Positions 31-41,328 are shown, counted from the stretch's first letter. The stretch is DNA of 64,000 nt from an uncultured Thermodesulfobacteriota bacterium (GCA_964348095.1 CAYGBK010000065.1:56847-120846); one strand, 5' to 3'. Notes: generated from the sequence alone by a model not told the origin. Made by a program: numbers and translations.

Positions 31-702
31 TCACGAGCGTTTTATGACCTCTAGGGCTTTCACGGTCTCTTCTGGCTCCGGCCGGACGGTGTAATTAGGA
101 CTCACATCAGCAACTCGAATCGTCGAGTGTTGGTCGATGATATATCTCGCTGGCATGGGAAGGGTCCACGAATCGTCGCCATTGAATTTTTCGAGGTCCA
201 CGCCGAGCTTCATATAAACCTTTCTCAGATCGTCCGGCAATTGGTAGACCAATCCATAACGTCGGGCGACCCGGTTTCCCTCATCGCTCAACAGGTCAAA
301 GTTGAGATTCCAATTCTTGACGGTCTGACGACTGTGGCTTGTGAGTTGTGGAGAAATTGCGATCAGGGTCGCCCCCGCTGACCTGATTTCCGGCCAAACC
401 TTCTCCAGAGCTACTAGCTCTGCATTGCAGTAAGGTCACCACATGCCTCGATAGAAGGTGACCACCAAAGGCCCTTTGGCAATTAGATCTTTGGCGCTGA
501 CGTGCTTGCCCTCTGGGTCAGGGAGCGTGAAATCTGGAGCCTGATCTCCCACCTTTAGAGCCCCATCGACGATGGGTGAATTGCGGAGGTCTTCTGTGGC
601 CCTGTGCATGACATCGATCATCTCCTGACTCACCTTGTCGTATGGTGGGGTGTGCGATTCAAAACGGGCTTTCATTGCGTCGAGCTTTTCTTGTAGAGAC
701 AT
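31..702 (-). CDS. Peroxiredoxin-like (AhpC/TSA, Prx-like2 type) selenoprotein; in-frame TGA at 436-438 read as Sec in a U-P-Y-C motif
   Basis: ORFs 436..702 and 31..291 share one frame (702-291=411). My hand translation of 292..435 has no stop other than the TGA. The joined product reads ...VVTFYRGMW-U-PYCNAELVALEKVW..., the W-C-P-x-C redox site of Prx-like2 thioredoxin-fold proteins. A SECIS-like hairpin follows. Confidence 0.8.
399..435 (-). promoter_or_regulatory. Candidate bacterial SECIS element of the Prx-like selenoprotein gene
   Basis: Minus-strand RNA directly after the UGA is CCUUACUGCAAUG-CAGAGCU-AGU-AGCUCUG-GAGAAGG. It has a perfect 7-bp upper stem (406..422) and a CCUU/AAGG lower stem. 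Confidence 0.6.
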
Positions 703-2859: not shown

Positions 2860-2933
2860 TGGGGGATCGTTCAGTGGAAGGACAACGGACTCTGACTCCG
2901 TGAACCCAGGTTCGAATCCTGGTCCCCCAGCCA
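2860..2933 (+). tRNA. tRNA-Gln (anticodon CUG), CCA encoded
   Basis: Cloverleaf folded by hand. Acceptor UGGGGGA/UCCCCCA; D stem GUUC/GGAC; anticodon stem ACGGA/UCCGU with loop CU-CUG-AC; T arm CCAGG-UUCGAAU-CCUGG; discriminator G; 3' CCA. Confidence 0.9.
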
Positions 2934-2939
2934 CAAAAG

Positions 2940-2976
2940 AGGGTTTGGCTCAGATTGAGCGAAACCCTTTTTGTTT
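2940..2976 (+). terminator. Rho-independent terminator after tRNA-Gln
   Basis: AGGGUUU...AAACCCU stem with an inner GCUCA/UGAGC stem, followed by UUUUGUUU. Confidence 0.55.
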
Positions 2977-3094
2977 CAGATCATCCTGCCAGCATTTTGG
3001 CCATAGAGGTATTGATGGGACAGGATCTCGAGGGTGGGGCGCCGCCCTTAACCTGCTAGCGGCAGGAAGAATATCCGGTTAGCGTATGCGCCTT

Positions 3095-3883
3095 TTAACC
3101 GTGAAGGGACTTGAGCATATCCTTCACCGACACGTCCGGGTGATGATAGCGTTCGTACTTTGGCGTCTTCTTTCCGTACTGGATCGCCTCCTGGGGACAC
3201 CATTGGAGACAGGCAAAGCACTGCTCACATCGGTGCGACCAGGAGATCTTGCCGTCTTGGATTTGAATGTTGCGGGCTGGACATATCTTCTCGCATACCA
3301 GGCATTGGTCGCACTTCTCATCTACCCAGAAGCTCTTATCCATGCGCCGGATCAGATGAACAAGGATTCGGTTGAGTGGGGTGAAGAGGATATGCTGCCA
3401 GAGTGGCCCCTTTTCAAGGGGGGGGCTTTCCTGGTTGCGAACGACCTGAGCGATTCCTAATACTTTTTCCCGTGCCTCATCGAAACGTCGATGCTGTTCC
3501 TCTTGTGGGCCTGGACCTCCCCACGGAATGTAGTTGGATGGCATAATCACCGAAAAACCGGCAGAAAGGGAGATCCCTCTCGCAGACAAGAGATTCCGGA
3601 CCTGGAGGAGACTGTTTACCACCTGCCCGGCATTGACAGCCACGGCGAAAACATAGGTGGAAGGAGAAACAGGAAACTCCCGAACAAAATCCACGATCCG
3701 GGGAGGAAGTCCCCAGATATGCACCGGGAAGACAAGACCGATCCCATCTGCTTGCGGGACCTCGGGGTGAGTGTTTCCACCCACAATCGAAAGCAGCGTG
3801 GCGTCCTGGAGCTCCTGAGCTATCAACCGGGCGACCCAGAGCGAGTTACCCGTGCCGGTATAGAAGTAAAGGACGCTCTTCAT
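3095..3883 (-). CDS. Flavodoxin-like plus 2x[4Fe-4S] ferredoxin-domain protein (EFR1-family-like)
   Basis: N-terminal LYFYTGTGNS flavodoxin-type motif. C-terminal motifs CDQCLVCEKICP and CEQCFACLQWCP. Confidence 0.7.
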   Translation of the reverse strand: MKSVLYFYTGTGNSLWVARLIAQELQDATLLSIVGGNTHPEVPQADGIGLVFPVHIWGLPPRIVDFVREFPVSPSTYVFAVAVNAGQVVNSLLQVRNLLSARGISLSAGFSVIMPSNYIPWGGPGPQEEQHRRFDEAREKVLGIAQVVRNQESPPLEKGPLWQHILFTPLNRILVHLIRRMDKSFWVDEKCDQCLVCEKICPARNIQIQDGKISWSHRCEQCFACLQWCPQEAIQYGKKTPKYERYHHPDVSVKDMLKSLHG

Positions 3884-4164
3884 GAATGCCCTCCAAAGGA
3901 ACTTGGAATCGTTTTGTCTCGCCCCCGTCCGTCTGGGAGTCTTTCAATTCATAATCTAGATCGTTGCATTTTTCAAGGGGCGCAGGGCTGGTTATCACGC
4001 CGAGGCCGAGGGATTACAGAGGGGCGATTGGGGATTTGAGAGATAGAAAGAGATGAGGTCCTGAGCATAGGCTCTTGGCAATCGCGATCATACAATATTA
4101 GCGTCGTAATCCCGCAACCGGGGTGTTACAATGATTCGTCACTACATTCTCCAGGAGGTGGTAT

Positions 4165-4659
4165 ATGGGCCCTTCATTTCGTCAGCAGCTCAATGAGCTC
4201 AAAGACCAGGTCGACGCCATGGTGGACGCGCTGCTGCAATGCAGTGATGAGGATCTGAACCGACCTCTAGAGTTGGACTTCAAGGGAAGAAAGTTTCGAA
4301 CGAGTCTCCGGGCGGCCACCAGGTACACCATCGAGGAATATCGCGTCCATGAGGGGCAGATCGGAGGGGATCAGTTCAACACCGAGATGATGAGATCAGG
4401 CAAATCAACAGGTGATATCGTGGCACTCACGCCATACGACCGGAAAGAGGCGGCATGGCTTGCCGCTGAGCTCTATGTAGCGGCCGCGTCGCTCATTGCT
4501 CGATGTCTGGGCTATCCCGAAGAGCTGGTAGACGAACACCCCAAAGAGGGAGAATGGTCCGTCCGCGAGGTTATCGAGCACATGATCCACATGGAAAAAT
4601 CGGGAGAATGGAGTCTTCAGCAGTTGGTTGCCCTGGGACGGGGTGAGATGATGCCATAA
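4165..4659 (+). CDS. Hypothetical helical protein (DinB-like guess)
   Basis: 164-aa ORF preceded by a GGAGGTGG RBS. Conserved-looking His residues (VHEGQ, EHMIHME). Family assignment is uncertain. Confidence 0.5.
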   Translation: MGPSFRQQLNELKDQVDAMVDALLQCSDEDLNRPLELDFKGRKFRTSLRAATRYTIEEYRVHEGQIGGDQFNTEMMRSGKSTGDIVALTPYDRKEAAWLAAELYVAAASLIARCLGYPEELVDEHPKEGEWSVREVIEHMIHMEKSGEWSLQQLVALGRGEMMP

Positions 4660-14293: not shown

Positions 14294-14824
14294 TCATCTC
14301 TGATCGAGTTGGCCCACACGAGCGTCCTCTATGAACCATCGCCCACCCCGAACTACCCACTCGTGGATTTCCCGATATGAGATTGCCGTGGGACTGACGA
14401 CGGCCCCGGGCAATTCGGCCATCTTTCCCCCTTCGAAAGGGGCGACGAGCATGGCGTTCGTCCTGGGATCCATTCCGTAAACGATAGTTGCCAGGACAAT
14501 GATCCCATCACGGCGAGAAAGTATGTTCTCTATGTGCAGGAGGCCTGGCCGAATAAGCTCTCTCTCCCGAGAGCCCGTCGACAGTATTATTCCTGGATCA
14601 ATGTCCAACTCGCGAGATTCGAGCTCCAGCATATGACCGTGGACTCGTCTCAACCGTTCTGATCGAAGATGATCAGGACGGTCCTTTGGCGAAGGGTAAT
14701 CGGCAAGGGCATTCCTCTCCTGAGGAATACTGAAGGCAACGCCAAAGTTTTGGGCCCCATAGTATGCCGTGATCTCTTGGGGAGGGTGGCGGTTAGTGCG
14801 GAAAGGAGAACTGGATAAAAGCAA
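14294..14824 (-). CDS. Hypothetical protein; possibly the frameshifted body of a secreted protein
   Basis: 176-aa ORF with a TTG start and no recognised motif. A signal-peptide-like ORF in another frame (14650..14871) overlaps its 5' end. Confidence 0.4.
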   Translation of the reverse strand: MLLSSSPFRTNRHPPQEITAYYGAQNFGVAFSIPQERNALADYPSPKDRPDHLRSERLRRVHGHMLELESRELDIDPGIILSTGSRERELIRPGLLHIENILSRRDGIIVLATIVYGMDPRTNAMLVAPFEGGKMAELPGAVVSPTAISYREIHEWVVRGGRWFIEDARVGQLDQR

Positions 14825-14878
14825 AAAGCGGCGCCGATCAAACCGCCCAAGCCCTTCATTCTTACCTCCATGGCGTTG

Positions 14879-15382
14879 TCAAAAGGAGAAATTCACCGTG
14901 ACCGTGCACTCCTGACCCCTGAACTTGAGACAGCGACTGAGATCGGGTTTCCGGGAATAATCCAGGCCCATGGCATCGAACCACCCCTCGATCCTCTCAA
15001 AAATTCCACACTCGTAATCCGCTAGGGTCCCTGCTTTCTCCATGCCTCGATGAGCGAAGCATTCTGAGATGTGAAAAACCTGTGCGTCGTCCCCTGGGTA
15101 CTCGACCTTAAATTCCATGAAGTCAGGAACAAAGACACGCCAGACCGTTTCAAACAGGTCTCGGTATTCATCCATCTTTCTCGGTGATCCGGCCTCGACG
15201 GCCTTCATTACTCTCCCGCATTCGATTCTTCCTAACTTTCTACAGACCCGGAGATTCATGGGGCTGGCCTCGGCCATCCCGAACCGTGCGGCCGCCTCCC
15301 CGTACCATAAGGCATCATGGGTCATCCAGTTCCGAATAAGCATCGATCTCAGCTCTTCTCTGCTAAAGGATTTTGGTTTCAT
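14879..15382 (-). CDS. Uncharacterised Cys-containing protein, paralogue B (DUF6125-like by recollection)
   Basis: 167 aa. Colinear similarity to 11421..11951. Confidence 0.6.
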   Translation of the reverse strand: MKPKSFSREELRSMLIRNWMTHDALWYGEAAARFGMAEASPMNLRVCRKLGRIECGRVMKAVEAGSPRKMDEYRDLFETVWRVFVPDFMEFKVEYPGDDAQVFHISECFAHRGMEKAGTLADYECGIFERIEGWFDAMGLDYSRKPDLSRCLKFRGQECTVTVNFSF

Positions 15383-21685: not shown

Positions 21686-22117
21686 CTACTCACAAAAGAT
21701 ACGAACCTTCTCCTTGTCACTGTCGACGTCTACACTGAGGTCCGCGAGAGCCTCGATGAGCTCTTCAAGTTTCTCTCCATCGAGTGACGAAAGATCGAAA
21801 TTGACGCCTTTTTCTTTAAGGGAATCGGTTACCCTGTTTTTCACGTGCTGAGGCATGATTGAACCGAGTTTGATCCCCGCCCTGAGAATATGCAGGGGAA
21901 TGCGGATGTTCACCCGTTCATGTTTACCGTTTGCACCGGCTTTCGGCTCGACGTGAACTCTGAAGTACTTCAACTTTCTCCCTTTCGTGTGGGACGGCAC
22001 GTCCTGTCCTGATCCGTCGGCCTGGATGTCTAAAGCATCGAGCAGTTTCTCTGCCTCTGAGACGGTGATCTTTCCCTCGGCGAGCATGGTTAAGATCTTT
22101 TGGCGGTCTTCACTCAT
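21686..22117 (-). CDS. SHOCT-like / YvlB-LiaX N-terminal domain protein
   Basis: ATG at 22117 with a GAGGAGGAT RBS. N-terminus MSEDRQKILTMLAEGKITVSEAEKLLDAL. Confidence 0.65.
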   Translation of the reverse strand: MSEDRQKILTMLAEGKITVSEAEKLLDALDIQADGSGQDVPSHTKGRKLKYFRVHVEPKAGANGKHERVNIRIPLHILRAGIKLGSIMPQHVKNRVTDSLKEKGVNFDLSSLDGEKLEELIEALADLSVDVDSDKEKVRIFCE

Positions 22118-22258
22118 GAGGATCCTCCTCTGGATAAGACGTATCAAACCTGTTATCCCTTCCCTCAGCCTTAACGGGTTTTGCCTGAATCTCCTGGGGA
22201 CCATCTGATGACACCCTCTTCTCCACAACCCGCAGTCGAACGGTCCCAGGGGGCCGTA

Positions 22259-22621
22259 TCACTGTCTGAGCCTCTCCAATGCTTCCTCAACGGTTATGTC
22301 ACCGTGTTCGAGGAGCTCCAGCGCTTCTGTTTGTGAGGGTACGGGCGCGATATCCACGAAATCAAGCTTCTGCGAAATTCGGTTGAGCCGGTTTTTGACC
22401 GTTGGATAACTGACTCCGAAAAGTCGTTCCATCTCCTTGATCGAACCATGGCTCTTGACGAAAGCCGCGACAAATATTTGGTCTTCCGTGGACAACCGAG
22501 CCAGGGGCGGCAGGTCGAAGATGCCTTCGATTGAAATCTCTTTTCGTGGCAGTCTGACTTTTTCGATCAAGAACTCTTCGCCATTGGTCAGCCGCGTCAG
22601 TTCTTGCCAATCCTTTGCCAT
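22259..22621 (-). CDS. DUF2089 family protein (HTH-like)
   Basis: 120 aa. ...FVKSHGSIKEMERLFGVSYPTVKNRLNRI... is as I recall for DUF2089. Confidence 0.7.
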   Translation of the reverse strand: MAKDWQELTRLTNGEEFLIEKVRLPRKEISIEGIFDLPPLARLSTEDQIFVAAFVKSHGSIKEMERLFGVSYPTVKNRLNRISQKLDFVDIAPVPSQTEALELLEHGDITVEEALERLRQ

Positions 22622-36630: not shown

Positions 36631-38019
36631 TTGAGCCAACAGGAACGACAGGCTATCCTGGCTTACTTCTATTGCGCCATATTCTGGCTTCTCGTTCCAG
36701 CCCTGGCCGGGATCTTGATGGCCGCGTTCCTTTCCACCCCATCTCTGCAAGAGTTCGTTCCACAGCCCCTCAAAGGAGTCCTGAATTTCGGCCGCCTGAG
36801 GCCGATGCATTCCAATACGCTTATTTTCGGGTGGCTTTCCATGGCATATGCTGGGGCTATGCTCTATATTACCAGGCGCCTGACAGGGGTCTCCCTTTTC
36901 AGTCCCGGACTTGCCCGGGTGGCCCTATGGCTGTGGAACCTTCTGATCGCTCTAGCGGCCATCACTCTGCTTGTTGGCATGAACCAGGGGCGTGAATATG
37001 CCGAGATGATCTGGCCCCTGGACCTGCTCTTTCTGGTTGTCATTGGCTTGCTGGGAATAAACATCTGGGGCACCGTCGCCCGTCGACGAGAACCCAAGCT
37101 GTACGTCAGCATCTGGAACTTTATGGCCGCCACCTTGATTCTCATTCCCGTCTATGCAATCGGCAACAAGATCTGGGACCCAACCGGGGCCTACACCGGC
37201 ATGAATGATAACATCATCAACTATTTCTACGTCCACAACCTCTTCAATGCCTGGTTTACCACCGGCGGCATCGGTTTGGCTCTTTACCTGCTGCCTCGGT
37301 TGACAAATAAACCCCTTTACAGCCATGCCCTGGCCATGTGGGGATTGTGGAGCGTCTGGACAGGTCAGCACCATCAACTTTGGGGCCCGGCCCCGGATTG
37401 GCTCGAAATTTTGACAGTGGTATTCAGTGTTCTGGCTGTTGTTCCAACGACGGCCTTTATGTGGAATTTCTACCAGACGATGAAGTACCGCTGGCTGCGA
37501 GTTGGGCAGGATGTGGCGGTGCGGTTTTTTGTGGTGGGCGCGATCTTCTGGGGATTCACCTGCATCCAAGGGATCGCCCAGTCGTTACGCACCTTTAGCC
37601 TCTACGTGCACTTTACTAACTGGGTGGTTTCCCATTCCCATCTGGCTTTTGTGGCCGACTATTCCCTCTGGGCCTTTTCCCTGGTCTACCTGATCGTTCC
37701 GGAATTGCTGAAACGCCCCATTTACAGCCGTATTCTTGCTGAGTGGCACTTCTGGCTGACCCTGGTGGGGCTGATGATTTTCATGGCCAGCCTCTGGCTG
37801 GCAGGTTTGGTCCAGGGTCAGCACTGGCTGGCTGGAGGGATCCGATTTCTGGACACGACCCAGGCCATGTATCCCTACTTTACCTGGCGGTTATTTGGTG
37901 GGCTCATGATATTTGTGGGCCAGGTCGTGTTTGCTTATAACATCTGGAAGACAGGAGCAGAGAGCGTGCCTTCCCGGAAAGGCTGGGTGCCCCTGGGTGC
38001 GCGGGTGCCCCAGGGTTAA
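36631..38019 (+). CDS. ccoN: cbb3-type (C-family) haem-copper oxidase catalytic subunit I
   Basis: 462 aa, multi-TM. ...NFGRLRPMHSNTLIFGWL... matches the CcoN GRLRPLHTN region. His pairs (SHSHLAF). TTG start. Confidence 0.8.
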   Translation: MSQQERQAILAYFYCAIFWLLVPALAGILMAAFLSTPSLQEFVPQPLKGVLNFGRLRPMHSNTLIFGWLSMAYAGAMLYITRRLTGVSLFSPGLARVALWLWNLLIALAAITLLVGMNQGREYAEMIWPLDLLFLVVIGLLGINIWGTVARRREPKLYVSIWNFMAATLILIPVYAIGNKIWDPTGAYTGMNDNIINYFYVHNLFNAWFTTGGIGLALYLLPRLTNKPLYSHALAMWGLWSVWTGQHHQLWGPAPDWLEILTVVFSVLAVVPTTAFMWNFYQTMKYRWLRVGQDVAVRFFVVGAIFWGFTCIQGIAQSLRTFSLYVHFTNWVVSHSHLAFVADYSLWAFSLVYLIVPELLKRPIYSRILAEWHFWLTLVGLMIFMASLWLAGLVQGQHWLAGGIRFLDTTQAMYPYFTWRLFGGLMIFVGQVVFAYNIWKTGAESVPSRKGWVPLGARVPQG

Positions 38020-38034
38020 GGAGGACGCAACACG

Positions 38035-38532
38035 GTGCGTTGGAGAATCGATCAACAGGGTCTGCCCTATTTGATCACCGGTTCACTGGTGGCCTTGATT
38101 CTGGGTATTATCGTAACCATCTTGATTCCAGCCCTTGGAGAACCGGATCCCACTGACCTGGCTCACCAATACACTGAAAGCGAGTTGCTGGGCCGGCTGG
38201 TCTATCAGCGCGAAGGGTGCTGGTACTGCCATACCCAACAGGTCCGCCCACCAGAGGTTGGTATTGGAACCATCCAGGTCAAGGGAGACATCGGTCCTGC
38301 CTCCTCGGCCGGTGACTATGCCTTCCAGAAGCCTGTCTACTGGGGGACCGAGCGTCAGGGACCGGATTTATCTCACGTTGCCAGTCGTCCCTACGGCTCA
38401 GTCAAGGAATGGCACATTCTGCATTTCAAGGACCCGGCCTTGGTGAGTCCGGGAACCCTGATGCCTTCGTATGCCCATCTTCCGGAGGCTGATGTCGAGG
38501 CACTGGCGGCCTATCTGTTGACCCTAAAATAG
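38035..38532 (+). CDS. ccoO: cbb3-type oxidase monohaem cytochrome c subunit II
   Basis: N-terminal TM, REGCWYCHTQQVRP (CxxCH), GPDLSHVASRP and HFKDPALVSPGTLMPSY, all CcoO-like. GTG start. Confidence 0.8.
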   Translation: MRWRIDQQGLPYLITGSLVALILGIIVTILIPALGEPDPTDLAHQYTESELLGRLVYQREGCWYCHTQQVRPPEVGIGTIQVKGDIGPASSAGDYAFQKPVYWGTERQGPDLSHVASRPYGSVKEWHILHFKDPALVSPGTLMPSYAHLPEADVEALAAYLLTLK

Positions 38533-38542
38533 GAGTGACAGG

Positions 38543-38704
38543 ATGATTTTTCCGGCGACTTGGTTGGTCTGGATCACTGTAGCGCTTATTCTGGCCCTTT
38601 TCTGGGGCGCCTATTTCATCGCCCGCGCCAGTGGCCACTTTGACGACCTGGAGCAGGTAAAGTACAAGGTACTGGAGGAGAGCCTGGAGAATGAGAAGGA
38701 ATGA
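38543..38704 (+). CDS. ccoS: CcoS/FixS-like cbb3 oxidase maturation peptide (53 aa, below the ORF-track cutoff)
   Basis: Hand translation is MIFPATWLVWITVALILALFWGAYFIARASGHFDDLEQVKYKVLEESLENEKE: one TM followed by a G-x-[FY]-DDL motif. AGGAG RBS 6 nt upstream. Confidence 0.65.
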   Translation: MIFPATWLVWITVALILALFWGAYFIARASGHFDDLEQVKYKVLEESLENEKE

Positions 38705-38930
38705 AATCCAAGAATTTGCTGAAGACGTCAGGGTAGGTCCCGCCGTGCGGCCGCGCTGGATAACCATCCTGGCTTACTGCCTGGTGATTTGGGGACTGGG
38801 GTACTTCATCTGGACAGCCAGCGGTGGAGGGCTGGACGGACCTAATTTGGTCATTTGGGCATTGCTGGCATTTTGGCTCGTATACACGCCGTTAGCGGTG
38901 TATAAGAAATGGTTTGCTATCCGGCTGTGA
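38691..38930 (+). CDS. CcoP N-terminal (FixP_N-like) membrane stub without cytochrome c domains
   Basis: 79 aa. ...GPAVRPRWITILAYCLVIWGLGYFIW... resembles the P-x-P-x-WW TM anchor of CcoP. No CxxCH motif. Overlaps the ccoS 3' end. Confidence 0.5.
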   Translation: MRRNEIQEFAEDVRVGPAVRPRWITILAYCLVIWGLGYFIWTASGGGLDGPNLVIWALLAFWLVYTPLAVYKKWFAIRL

Positions 38931-39015: not shown

Positions 39016-39332
39016 GATTTCAGAGTGTATTCGCCTGCCATTTAGAAAGCCATAATACTCTCTATCAACTGATTCAATCAACTTTATCTCCGTGAAAGCG
39101 AGCGTTTTCATCCTCAAGTGGGATCCCACACTGACTGTTATTCTCAAATTCTAGTTTCAAGTGAATCTGCCGACCCTTTTTCCCTTTGGTGAACGCGACA
39201 GGAGACGCCAGGAGAAAACTCAAAAATGATATAATTGTCCAAAATCTACTGAAGATTTTATGCCCCTAAGTCGAGGGGCTCCGAAAAGCCGGAGTCCGCT
39301 GAAGACAATGATATGAGGAGGCAGGGGTCGAC

Positions 39333-40469
39333 ATGACTGGGGATAGACCCAAAAGACGCCTCGTCTTTGTCGGCGGGGGACACGTTCACCTGCTTTCATT
39401 AAAGAATATCGGCCGTTTCCTGGATGGGGGTGCCGAGGTTACGGTGATTGCCCCGGACCGATTTCACTACTATTCGGGCATGGGCCCAGGAATGGTTTCA
39501 CGCATCTACGAGCCAGAGCAGGTGCGGTTCAACATTCAAAAGATGGTCGAATCCCGTGGAGGGTCGTTTGTTAAAGACAAAGTGGCCTCAGTTGATGCAC
39601 CTGAAAAAGAACTTACCCTGGCGGGTGGAGAGAAAGTGTTTTACGACCTCCTCTCTTTCAATATAGGAAGCTATGTGCCGATGGACCGTATCGAGGGTGC
39701 CGAAAAAGGAGCGATTCCTGTAAAGCCGATCGAGAACCTGGAAAAAGCCCGACGGGCCATATTGGAGGGTTTTCAGAGAGGGATTCCCAAAGTTCTTATA
39801 GTTGGTGCTGGTCCTGCGGGTGTTGAACTGGCTGGTAATATTTGGCGATTGGCCTGCAGTCAGGATGGCTATGGGGAGATCACTTTGGCGAGTTCCAGAG
39901 ACCGGGTTCTGCCGGAGCTCCCCCAAAAGGCGAGTTCTCTTGCCCAGGAGTCTCTCTCTCAACGGGGGATACATATCCGCTCCAACTTTCGCGTGGTTAA
40001 TCTAAGCCAGGGAAGGGCCCGTTCCAAATATGGTGAAGAAGTCCGGTACGATGTGGCTATTCTGACAATTGGGATCATGCCCCAGAGGATTTTCGGCAAT
40101 TCTGGATTGGAAACGGCAGCAGACGGCGCGCTCCTGGTAAACAACTACCTTCAGAGCACGAGCTCCCCGGATGTCTTTGGAGGCGGAGACTGTATCGCCA
40201 TCCATGGAAGCCGAGTGGACCGGGTCGGTGTCTATGCCGTGCGGGAGGCGCCGATTCTTTTCAACAATCTCTTGGCGAGACTAGAGGGAAAGCCGCTCAA
40301 GGCCTTTAAGCCGCAGAAACGATACCTTTTGATACTCAACCTCGGAGACGGCTCGGGTCTCTTTGTCCGAGGGTCTTGGGTGTGGAAAGGGAAACTGGCA
40401 TTTGCCTTCAAGAGCTTTCTCGATCGACGGTTCATGTCAAACTTCCAGGTTTCGGGAGAAACGGGATGA
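39333..40469 (+). CDS. FAD-dependent pyridine nucleotide-disulfide oxidoreductase (NDH-2/SQR-like; TIGR03169-like by recollection)
   Basis: RLVFVGGGHVHL and KVLIVGAGPAGVELAG dinucleotide-binding motifs; VFGGGDCIAI FAD motif. Confidence 0.8.
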   Translation: MTGDRPKRRLVFVGGGHVHLLSLKNIGRFLDGGAEVTVIAPDRFHYYSGMGPGMVSRIYEPEQVRFNIQKMVESRGGSFVKDKVASVDAPEKELTLAGGEKVFYDLLSFNIGSYVPMDRIEGAEKGAIPVKPIENLEKARRAILEGFQRGIPKVLIVGAGPAGVELAGNIWRLACSQDGYGEITLASSRDRVLPELPQKASSLAQESLSQRGIHIRSNFRVVNLSQGRARSKYGEEVRYDVAILTIGIMPQRIFGNSGLETAADGALLVNNYLQSTSSPDVFGGGDCIAIHGSRVDRVGVYAVREAPILFNNLLARLEGKPLKAFKPQKRYLLILNLGDGSGLFVRGSWVWKGKLAFAFKSFLDRRFMSNFQVSGETG

Positions 40470-40488
40470 CTGGATTGGAGGAGGCAGG

Positions 40489-41328
40489 ATGAGATTCATG
40501 GATCTATTTTCTCAGGTCAAGACGATGAACGCCGAGGAGTCGAGAAAGTGGCTCGATGAGAGCCCCGAGGAGTCGGTCACGCTTCTGGATGTTCGAGAGC
40601 CCGAAGAGTATGAGGAGGGACACATTCCTGGAGCGGTTCTCATTCCCCTTTCAGAACTTTCCGACCGGCTCTCTGAAATTGATCCACAGAAACCGGTTCT
40701 TGCTTATTGAAAGGCAGGGGGCCGCAGCCGGTCGGCTGCAAACCTGCTTTCAAATGAAGCCTTCGATGCGACCTCGATGACGGGAGGGATTGATGCCTGG
40801 AATGGTCTCCTTTCCAGAGCAGAAGTCGATCAGGGGATATACCTCATTGAGGGGGACGAATCCCCAGAGGAGGTCCTGTCTCTTGCCTATGGATTGGAAG
40901 ATGGGATCTATCGGTTCTATTCGACCCTCGCTGAAGGATCGACCGAAAAAGACGTTGGAGAACTCTTCGAGAAATTGGCCAAAGCTGAGGTCCACCACAA
41001 GAACAACATCTGGGAGAGTTACAGGGCATTGACTTCGGGTCGGCTAACGAGAAAGGCTTTTGAAGCTGAAACCGTTCCAAAAACCATGGAGGGAGGGAAG
41101 ACGGCAGACCAAATTCTGGAGGAGCAGGGAGATTCAATTCAAAATTCTCGCGATGCTATAGAGCTCGCCATGTCCTTGGAGACCGATGCCCTCGATCTCT
41201 ATCTCAGGATGGTTCACAAAACTCAAAAGGAAGAAGCAAAGGCGGTCTTTTTTGCCATCGTGACCGAGGAGAAAAGTCATCTTAAGAGGCTGGGAGAGTT
41301 GTTTCGTAAGAAGCTCAAGGGACAATAG
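40489..41328 (+). CDS. Selenoprotein: rhodanese domain with Sec at the catalytic position (TGA 40708-40710) fused to a ferritin/rubrerythrin-like di-iron domain
   Basis: ORFs 40363..40710 and 40777..41328 share one frame, with an open frame between them. The sequence reads ...QKPVLAY-U-KAGGRSRSAANLL...GGIDAWNG, a rhodanese C-x-x-G-x-R-S loop. The C-terminal domain has GLEDG/KAEVHH and SLETD/TEEKSH E...ExxH pairs. GGAGGAGG RBS before the ATG at 40489. Confidence 0.8.
40711..40750 (+). promoter_or_regulatory. Candidate bacterial SECIS element of the rhodanese selenoprotein gene
   Basis: Starts 1 nt after the UGA. Lower stem AAGGCAGG/CCUGCUUU, internal loop, upper stem GCAGCC/GGCUGC, apical loop GGUC. 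Confidence 0.65.

Follow-up and report, generated by a model that had tools for sequence, protein, structure and literature searches.

A selenocysteine rhodanese carrying a rubrerythrin-type di-iron domain, paired with a dedicated flavoprotein and widely mis-annotated in Thermodesulfobacteriota

The locus and its gene products

We analyzed a 64,000-nucleotide stretch of DNA from an uncultured Thermodesulfobacteriota bacterium (GCA_964348095.1, CAYGBK010000065.1:56847-120846), called the window in what follows, with positions counted from its first letter. Two adjacent genes on the plus strand are the subject of this study (Table 1). One encodes a flavoprotein, and the other a rhodanese with an in-frame UGA at its catalytic position, joined to a ferritin-like di-iron domain. 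We consider it highly probable that the second gene yields a single 279-amino-acid selenocysteine (Sec)-rhodanese/di-iron polypeptide, that its UGA-74 is decoded with the help of a downstream hairpin, and that the two genes form one module. For the comparative part of the work one genome per species was scanned and the 80 best relatives of the fusion were fetched; the counts given below use 83 loci for the codon at the Sec column, 81 non-redundant loci for neighboring genes, 84 loci for sel genes, and 79 sequences for the metal ligands.

The original prediction for this locus, made from the DNA sequence, held that the frame stays open beyond the TGA to give a joined product of about 279 residues, a rhodanese followed by a ferritin-like domain. 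Reading the DNA gives exactly 279 residues (about 31 kDa), with the in-frame TGA as codon 74 and the frame open to a TAG at 41326-41328, and Pfam profiles match both halves (Table 1). Two relatives, L001 and L002, start in the same way as the window gene, with MRF(M/S)D.

Table 1. Features of the module and of a second probable selenoprotein gene, in window coordinates.
Feature	Position	Strand	Description
Possible extended -10 element TGATATAAT	39227..39235	+	Sequence present; weak support
Partner flavoprotein gene	39333..40469	+	378 aa; NDH-2/FSP1-like FAD/NAD(P)H oxidoreductase; Pfam Pyr_redox_2, E = 1e-27
Ribosome-binding site GGAGGAGG	40476..40483	+	5 nt before ATG 40489; read from the sequence
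Selenoprotein gene	40489..41328	+	279 aa; N-terminal rhodanese with Sec74, C-terminal rubrerythrin-type di-iron four-helix bundle
Rhodanese domain, residues 20-105	40546..40803	+	Pfam PF00581, E = 1.3e-19; active-site loop U74-K-A-G-G-R-S
UGA read as Sec, residue 74	40708..40710	+	Aligns with the catalytic Cys of Cys-form homologues
Hairpin resembling a selenocysteine insertion sequence (SECIS)	40711..40750	+	RNAfold; lower stem 40711-18/40743-50
Upper stem of the hairpin	40724-29/40734-39	+	GCAGCC/GGCUGC; apical loop GGUC, 40730-33
Rubrerythrin/erythrin-type di-iron domain, residues 128-270	40870..41298	+	Pfam PF02915, E = 3.6e-12
Ligand codons	40897-99, 40987-89, 40996-98, 41179-81, 41269-71, 41278-80		E137, E167, H170, E231, E261, H264
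Second probable selenoprotein gene	31-702	-	TGA 436-438; 223 aa; AhpC/TSA-type Prx-like thiol:disulfide oxidoreductase

Around the UGA the protein reads ...QKPVLAY-U-KAGGRSRSAANLL..., which makes a six-residue C-X4-R rhodanese loop, the type found in sulfurtransferases; the counterpart of this loop in the aligned homologues is C-A-x-G-G-R-S. For the Pfam search a cysteine was put in place of the UGA residue. By profile comparison and Foldseek, the rhodanese domain matches GlpE, the rhodanese domains of PDO-rhodanese fusions, CoADR-RHD and Npsr. We also used an AlphaFold2 model of a Cys-containing homologue that is 45% identical to the window protein (predicted local distance difference test 83.9, predicted template modeling score 0.83), which shows a rhodanese fold followed by four long helices (127-150, 155-182, 221-245, and 249-277). 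With this model as query, Foldseek returned a probability of 1.0 and a root mean square deviation of 1.3 Å to 3tp9 and 3gk5; the rhodanese half alone was matched, and the search found no solved structure covering both domains. A scan of the fusion against NCBIfam gave no model at its cut-off, with NF041203 (rhodanese_LYCAU (seleno)protein) scoring 24.7 bits against a required 115.

The UGA as a selenocysteine codon

If the UGA encodes Sec, homologues should carry Cys at the same column, as had been proposed, and an alignment of 16 full-length homologues places their Cys precisely there. These full-length Cys forms (277-284 amino acids) carry both domains. Across the 83 loci the codon at this column is TGA in 49, TGC in 21 and TGT in 13, which excludes a read error as the source of the TGA; 47 distinct sequences, drawn from independent assemblies, have it at the identical column. 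Conservation as part of the rhodanese active site extends over the 22 codons (66 nt) from there to the next ATG. On a neighbor-joining tree the Sec/Cys state switches at least 11 times, and such interchange is the usual pattern for a catalytic redox residue.

A tblastn search of the window with E. coli SelA, SelB, and SelD revealed none of the three genes, all matches having E values of 0.5 or worse, and ARAGORN detected no tRNA-Sec in it. A second probable selenoprotein gene lies on the minus strand of the same window (Table 1). Its Prx-like product has the UxxC motif FYRGMW-U-PYC, and a 7-bp hairpin (CAGAGCU-AGU-AGCUCUG) begins 13 nt past its UGA, which is also the distance found in the rhodanese gene. 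With two selenoprotein genes in one window, the sequence makes it likely that this organism decodes Sec. We set aside two other in-frame TGA candidates, 14294-15382 and 21686-22621 (minus strand), for want of any family match.

A hairpin retained in selenocysteine forms

A bipartite hairpin had been predicted directly after the UGA, and RNAfold gives it exactly (Table 1); its upper stem is conserved among Sec forms, but its lower stem is not. The upper stem begins 13 nt past the UGA and the apical loop opens with GG, a spacing and a loop start that we take to fit the bSECISearch model of bacterial SECIS elements.

The conserved peptide R-S-R-x-A-A, shared by both, served to compare Sec with Cys forms. 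Pairing of nucleotides 16-20 with 27-31 after the UGA gives a stem of 5 bp or more in 42 of the 47 distinct Sec forms and in 3 of the 33 Cys forms. The first Ala codon of the peptide pairs through its third position with the A in AGC, the Ser codon; it reads GCT in 42/47 Sec forms vs. 3/33 Cys forms (Fisher test, 1.5e-13). The remaining five Sec sequences have a shifted 6-bp stem, GAGCCG/CGGCUC, and compensatory stem variants occur as well (AGAAGC/GCUUCU, CGAAGU/GGCUUCG). In the alignment of the 47 Sec forms, paired cells make up 82.7%, and double changes occur at three pairs. Through about 10 switches on the neighbor-joining tree, GCT comes and goes with Sec, so the association is not the artefact of a single clade. 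The hairpin is held by synonymous codon choice in Sec forms and not in Cys forms.

Folding energy does not make the same distinction. The window hairpin is unremarkable when taken alone (z = -1.8), and the mean minimum free energy of the region, -12.1 kcal/mol in Sec forms and -11.3 kcal/mol in Cys forms, fails to separate the sets because many Cys forms can fold an alternative hairpin, GGCCGC-N9-GCGGCC, at nucleotides 12-32 past the TGC or TGT (L016, L024, L025, L029, L032, and others). Three Cys forms (L045, L052, L068) retain the Sec-type GCT codon and stem; on the tree they fall among Sec clades, which may mean that they turned from Sec to Cys recently. The lower stem forms in the window, yet its sequence is not conserved among relatives, and it is largely a by-product of Gly-Gly and Leu-Leu-Ser codons. 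An Rfam scan of the whole window returned a tRNA-Gln only and no SECIS family match, though bacterial SECIS elements within coding sequences need not match curated models.

It remains to weigh the reading under which the gene is currently annotated, in which the TGA would be a genuine stop, or would result from a sequencing error, and the locus would encode a truncated rhodanese fragment and a separate rubrerythrin-like protein of 183 amino acids. Automated calls do split the gene in every Sec-form contig examined, and the Sec machinery was not found within the window. This reading would nevertheless require a stop codon to be kept at one column, aligned with the catalytic Cys, in 47 distinct sequences, with 66 nt encoding a conserved active-site loop beyond it and a hairpin retained specifically in the TGA forms. 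The 73-residue fragment would be left without the catalytic loop and half of the fold, and the second UxxC selenoprotein gene in the window also speaks against it. We consider it very improbable.

The di-iron domain

The two E...ExxH pairs first noticed in the C-terminal half correspond to E137 with E167/H170 and E231 with E261/H264. All six ligands are invariant in the 79 aligned sequences, as are Y144, Y238, E201, G203, and D236. No rubredoxin-like CxxC...CxxC domain was found in the 279 residues, either by Pfam or in the sequence, and the domain is therefore of the erythrin type and not a rubrerythrin proper. Its closest solved relatives are TM1526 (PDB 1vjx, E = 1.9e-12) and PDB 2fzf (E = 3.8e-9).

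Two of the invariant features lie outside the ligand set. One is an E-G-G motif (M/L-E-G-G, residues 201-203, window 41089-41097) located in the crossover segment between helices 2 and 3, and the other is D236, five residues past the ligand E231. Neither, we assume, belongs to the ligands of canonical rubrerythrins; possible roles are to line a substrate pocket or to touch the rhodanese loop.

The flavoprotein and its pairing with the fusion

The fusion gene starts 19 nt after the end of the flavoprotein reading frame, and the coordinates agree with those first given for this 378-residue protein of the pyridine-nucleotide-disulfide type. Its best curated match by far is TIGR03169 (274 bits over positions 2-365 of 365, below the cut-off of 310), and five partner flavoproteins from distant loci match the same model over its full length at 254-273 bits, all again below the cut-off. 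From these scores the flavoprotein looks like a sister subfamily of TIGR03169, the domain that is fused N-terminally to SelD. Of the two affinities suggested at the outset, the one to a lineage fused to SelD elsewhere is thus borne out at a sub-cut-off level, whereas membership in the CoADR/Npsr type is rejected: the protein has no redox-active catalytic Cys, and the rhodanese domain is on a separate polypeptide.

The sole Cys conserved in 33 aligned partner flavoproteins lies in the FAD motif GGGDC, and the nearest solved structures are NDH-2, FSP1/AIFM2, and the NADH oxidases (Nox). We therefore read the protein as a direct flavin reductase, in the manner of NADH:rubredoxin oxidoreductase. 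Its best 120 homologues are stand-alone proteins of 301-424 amino acids with no further domain.

A survey of gene neighborhoods, which had been suggested as a check on the pairing, finds a flavoprotein homologue adjoining the fusion on the same strand in 34-35 of the 81 loci, upstream in 12 and downstream in 22, beside both Sec and Cys forms. Conversely, flavoprotein homologues down to 54% identity have a split Sec gene directly after them in otherwise unrelated surroundings. A pairing that is kept in both gene orders while the flanks change is good evidence for a functional pair.

Distribution and annotation

At least 515 species genomes encode a relative of the fusion, and those named to phylum among the 80 best relatives are all Thermodesulfobacteriota or 'Deltaproteobacteria'. 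Carriers of the Sec form include Desulfotignum and Desulfobacula species, in which the residues around the UGA read ...LVY-U-A(V/I)GGR.... A protein search returned two groups. The members of the first are full-length (277-284 amino acids), contain both domains, and are 41-45% identical to the window protein. The second group contains many proteins of almost exactly 183 amino acids that are 57-90% identical to it and cover its C-terminal 65%. In independent contigs, the 183-amino-acid reading frame is preceded in frame by a rhodanese fragment of 70-73 amino acids ending at a TGA, and these proteins proved to be truncated gene calls of Sec forms. Such truncated calls, 173-202 and mostly 183 amino acids long, make up more than 50 of the 120 best database matches. 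For example, the gene on the public contig WVXX01000193.1 (GCA_011773285.1) is annotated as a 73-amino-acid 'Rhodanese' and a 183-amino-acid 'Rubrerythrin'. Cys forms are automatically named 'rhodanese-related sulfurtransferase/rubrerythrin' at the Joint Genome Institute (JGI), so annotation pipelines do see the architecture, although the family is uncharacterised.

In sum, the family joins a Sec-rhodanese to a di-iron domain, has a flavoprotein of its own as partner, and is both widespread and systematically mis-annotated. Members occur in hundreds of species genomes, the selenoprotein is systematically miscalled as two genes, and no curated model recognises it; a dedicated model would mend many annotations as well as selenoprotein counts.

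Gene neighborhood

The pair had been placed immediately downstream of a cbb3 oxidase operon, and CcoN and CcoO genes of a cbb3-type oxidase are indeed found upstream of it (36631-38532). Among the closest genome relatives (66-72% identity) the gene order is rubrerythrin - flavoprotein - Sec fusion - Fe/Mn-superoxide dismutase (SOD). In four of the five closest, the flavoprotein gene has a canonical rubrerythrin gene ending about 40-100 nt ahead of it, and in three of the five (L006, L007, L009) the Fe/Mn-SOD gene follows the fusion. Within 6 kb of the fusion, rubrerythrin occurs in 10/81 loci, where, by our own rough estimate, about 1% would be expected by chance.

Other redox genes recur. A double nitroreductase-fold protein (PF00881 twice, about 510 amino acids) is encoded directly upstream of the fusion in 14 loci (L021, L022, L028, L035, L042, L044, L046, L049, L061, L063, L065, L067, L071, and L073), and in eight of these, from the Desulfotignum group (L022, L028, L042, L044, L046, L061, L071, and L073), the order is nitroreductase - Sec fusion - flavoprotein. 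This protein may be an alternative or additional redox partner. A DLD-like flavoprotein lies near the fusion in 10 loci, thioredoxin in four, and FTR-B in four. Within about 8 kb of the 84 loci, tblastn found no selA, selB or selD, with the exception of a weak selB-like match (GTPase region) in L063.

Comparison with known systems

Catalogues have listed Sec-containing rhodanese-related sulfurtransferases since 2004-2005, and Deltaproteobacteria are rich in them (PMC1088965, PMC1976440); the Olavius delta-1 symbiont alone has eight Sec genes of this kind (PMC1976440, PMC13188914). A 2026 catalogue lists five rhodanese-like selenoprotein forms, two of which (forms 2 and 4) have a UxxG motif (PMC13188914); MBM9537886.1 and MCY3690685.1 are among the catalogued examples. 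The window protein resembles these in its single rhodanese domain, in the position of Sec at the catalytic Cys, and in the motif, here U-K-A-G. It differs from them, as far as their descriptions go, in that only PF00581 is listed there, with neither a di-iron domain nor a flavoprotein partner. The words 'ferritin' and 'rubrerythrin' are absent from the 2026 catalogue (PMC13188914) and from a 2022 review, and a full-text literature search found no paper joining a rhodanese selenoprotein with rubrerythrin. The novelty first claimed for this module therefore needs adjusting: neither the fusion nor the pairing is described in the literature searched, but the Sec-rhodanese part is less novel than was implied, having probably been counted already in selenoproteome catalogues as 'rhodanese-related sulfurtransferase'.

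One close parallel is the chain of rubrerythrin, rubredoxin and NADH:rubredoxin oxidoreductase. Both have a four-helix bundle with the ligand order E, ExxH, E, ExxH and two tyrosines, both have a Pyr_redox_2-type partner of about 380 amino acids without a redox-active disulfide, and both are found in anaerobes; canonical rubrerythrin and SOD genes even stand in the same operon-like clusters as the fusion. Unlike the neighboring canonical rubrerythrins, which carry PF21349, the fusion has no rubredoxin-like CxxC...CxxC domain. In its place it has an N-terminal Sec/Cys rhodanese, and it has the invariant E201-G-G in its crossover loop.

A second parallel concerns the flavoprotein. A fusion of COG1252 to SelD was noted in 2008, with the suggestion that the flavoprotein domain reduces a selenium compound (PMC2432076). 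The partner flavoproteins match this TIGR03169/COG1252 domain over its full length and are likewise coupled to a protein with a reactive Sec/Cys loop. They differ in that all six tested score below 310 bits, are never SelD-fused in our set, and have no selD nearby. The pairing of this sister subfamily with a Sec-rhodanese has no description in the literature searched. The SelD-fused family has been without a known function since 2008, and its sister subfamily here pairs with a reactive Sec/Cys-loop protein; a cultured carrier of the Cys form, Desulfobacter curvatus DSM 3379 (locus L052), makes the question of what these flavoproteins do directly testable.

The persulfide-metabolising fusions CoADR-RHD, Npsr, CoAPR, and PDO-rhodanese (PRF/CstB) similarly couple a catalytic-Cys rhodanese to a flavin reductase or to an iron enzyme, and they are the top structural neighbors of the window-type rhodanese domain. 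In contrast to CoADR-RHD and Npsr, the flavoprotein here is a separate gene without the CoADR catalytic Cys, and in contrast to PRF/CstB, the iron domain is a di-iron four-helix bundle and not a mononuclear metallo-beta-lactamase fold. The stand-alone erythrin/ferritin-like proteins TM1526 (1vjx) and 2fzf, relatives of the C-terminal domain, are single-domain proteins without a rhodanese and with no known function. The combination of a Sec/Cys rhodanese loop, a conserved di-iron site, and a dedicated flavin reductase is without characterised precedent.

Possible function

In its parts and its setting the module is like the peroxidase chain that anaerobes build around rubrerythrin, and it is because of this resemblance that we favor a role in oxidative stress. 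We tentatively suggest that the module could be an NAD(P)H-driven oxidative-stress defense system of anaerobic or microaerophilic Thermodesulfobacteriota. The flavoprotein would take reducing equivalents from NAD(P)H and hand them to the fusion protein. There, the Sec/Cys loop of the rhodanese would either replace the missing rubredoxin domain as a redox relay or act as the first nucleophile on peroxide or an oxidised sulfur species, and the di-iron center would reduce H2O2 or O2 to water. This scheme builds on the gene structure, Sec codon, SECIS hairpin, domains, ligands, and conserved pairing described above, to which the electron flow, the substrate, and the role of Sec would be added by analogy with that chain. 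Identity and mechanism taken together, it is the best explanation overall, with close to an even chance of being correct.

More doubtful is the further step that the module represents a new class of di-iron NAD(P)H peroxidase/oxidase, in which the Sec of a rhodanese loop, and not rubredoxin iron, would couple the flavin reductase to the di-iron site. If true, this would be the first case of Sec and a carboxylate-bridged di-iron center acting together in an enzyme, and the class would be widespread in sulfate-reducing and syntrophic Thermodesulfobacteriota, hidden in annotation by the split at the UGA. If the three parts do act together, they would give anaerobes a new way to handle oxygen, peroxide, or reactive sulfur/selenium species.

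Several points weigh against the best explanation given above. A selenol or thiol acting as one-electron donor to a di-iron site would be unusual, and we know of no precedent. In about 30 of the 81 loci no tabulated partner gene is adjacent, and the blank searches for selA, selB, selD, and tRNA-Sec in the window count here as well. A TehB-like S-adenosylmethionine-dependent methyltransferase of the tellurite resistance family (PF03848) adjoins the fusion in L011, L012, and L038 and lies nearby in a fourth locus. The rhodanese domain is closest in sequence and fold to that of the persulfide-metabolising fusions (PDO-rhodanese, CoADR-RHD, Npsr, CoAPR), and the closest curated relative of the flavoprotein, the SelD-fused domain, was proposed to reduce a selenium compound (PMC2432076).

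These points lead to the alternatives. The original prediction saw in the locus a persulfide- or selenium-handling module, a view that fits poorly with the neighbors actually found, namely rubrerythrin, Fe/Mn-SOD, nitroreductase, thioredoxin/FTR, and the oxidase, with no sel genes near except for the weak match in L063. The rubrerythrin, SOD, and cbb3 oxidase neighbors favor an oxidative-stress system over selenium or persulfide handling. In its sulfur version, the module would use NAD(P)H to reduce persulfide, polysulfide, or perselenide, as a two-component counterpart of Npsr, CoAPR, or CoADR-RHD: sulfane sulfur or selenium would be captured on the Sec/Cys as E-Se-S(e)H and then reduced to H2S or H2Se by the flavoprotein, and the di-iron domain would be an accessory, for instance a sensor or an O2 scavenger. 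The six-residue sulfurtransferase-type loop, a rhodanese domain whose best neighbors are fused to persulfide dioxygenases and to CoA-persulfide/polysulfide reductases, sulfide-producing hosts, and the tight pairing with the flavoprotein all agree with it. We think it unlikely all the same: the flavoprotein is without the catalytic Cys that defines the CoADR/Npsr enzymes, the neighboring genes are of the oxidative-stress kind and not of sulfur metabolism, and no role is left for the di-iron site, which is the largest and most invariant part of the protein.

A role for all three parts would be provided by repair of, or donation to, Fe-S clusters or iron centers, in functional analogy to the di-iron RIC/YtfE repair proteins, with the rhodanese giving sulfane sulfur, the di-iron site iron, and the flavoprotein the electrons to turn S0 into sulfide. 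The oxidative-stress neighborhood would suit repair after damage, and NifU is encoded within about 5 kb in eight loci. Most of the NifU cases, however, are Desulfotignum loci with the gene about 5 kb away, which may be plain synteny, and neither a cysteine desulfurase nor a scaffold gene is adjacent. The ligand set with its two flanking tyrosines is, we presume, that of a catalytic rubrerythrin and not of a labile iron site, and we regard the repair hypothesis as improbable. A selenium or tellurium module, in which the Sec-rhodanese would be the selenium carrier, is in our judgment quite improbable. It would supply SelD with selenide made from selenite, Se(0), or selenotrisulfides, or else detoxify chalcogen oxyanions. 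Ogasawara et al. in 2001 reportedly proposed rhodanese perselenide as a selenium donor, and the TehB-like gene, adjacent in three to four loci, is the only hint in the neighborhood at a selenium or tellurium link. The flavoprotein is also the closest sister of the SelD-fused domain with its proposed selenium substrate (PMC2432076), but it fell under the TIGR03169 cut-off in all six cases tested. Further, the tblastn searches with E. coli SelA, SelB, and SelD were blank in the flanks of the 84 loci bar L063, the di-iron domain would again have no role, and Sec and Cys forms are interchangeable.

Additional observations on the flanking regions

Neither the extended -10 element nor the structured leader that had been proposed for the pair is supported. 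The motif TGATATAAT is present in the window, but it was not called by a promoter scan and nine relatives lack it ahead of their flavoprotein gene, and folding of the leader is not significant (z = -1.44).

The oxidase cluster (36631-38930) comprises CcoN (462 amino acids), CcoO (165 amino acids), a FixS-like reading frame of 53 amino acids, and one of 79 amino acids, with no CcoP called there. This set has the look of a reduced cbb3 oxidase of the CcoNO type, which serves in O2 scavenging.

In the nearest relatives L006-L009, a canonical rubrerythrin with its rubredoxin domain, the flavoprotein, and the Sec fusion form an apparent operon, with the three genes at 2921-3418, 3452-4582, and 4608-5435 in L007. 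The N-terminus of the Fe/Mn-SOD in L006, L007, and L009 contains, by eye, a candidate twin-arginine signal. The nitroreductase gene often runs a few bases into the start of the fusion gene (offset +3 nt). Finally, in seven loci that lack the flavoprotein (L010, L011, L014, L015, L020, L056, and L059), a PF04116 membrane protein of the fatty-acid-hydroxylase/sterol-desaturase type, with histidine-rich di-iron motifs, is encoded directly downstream of the fusion.

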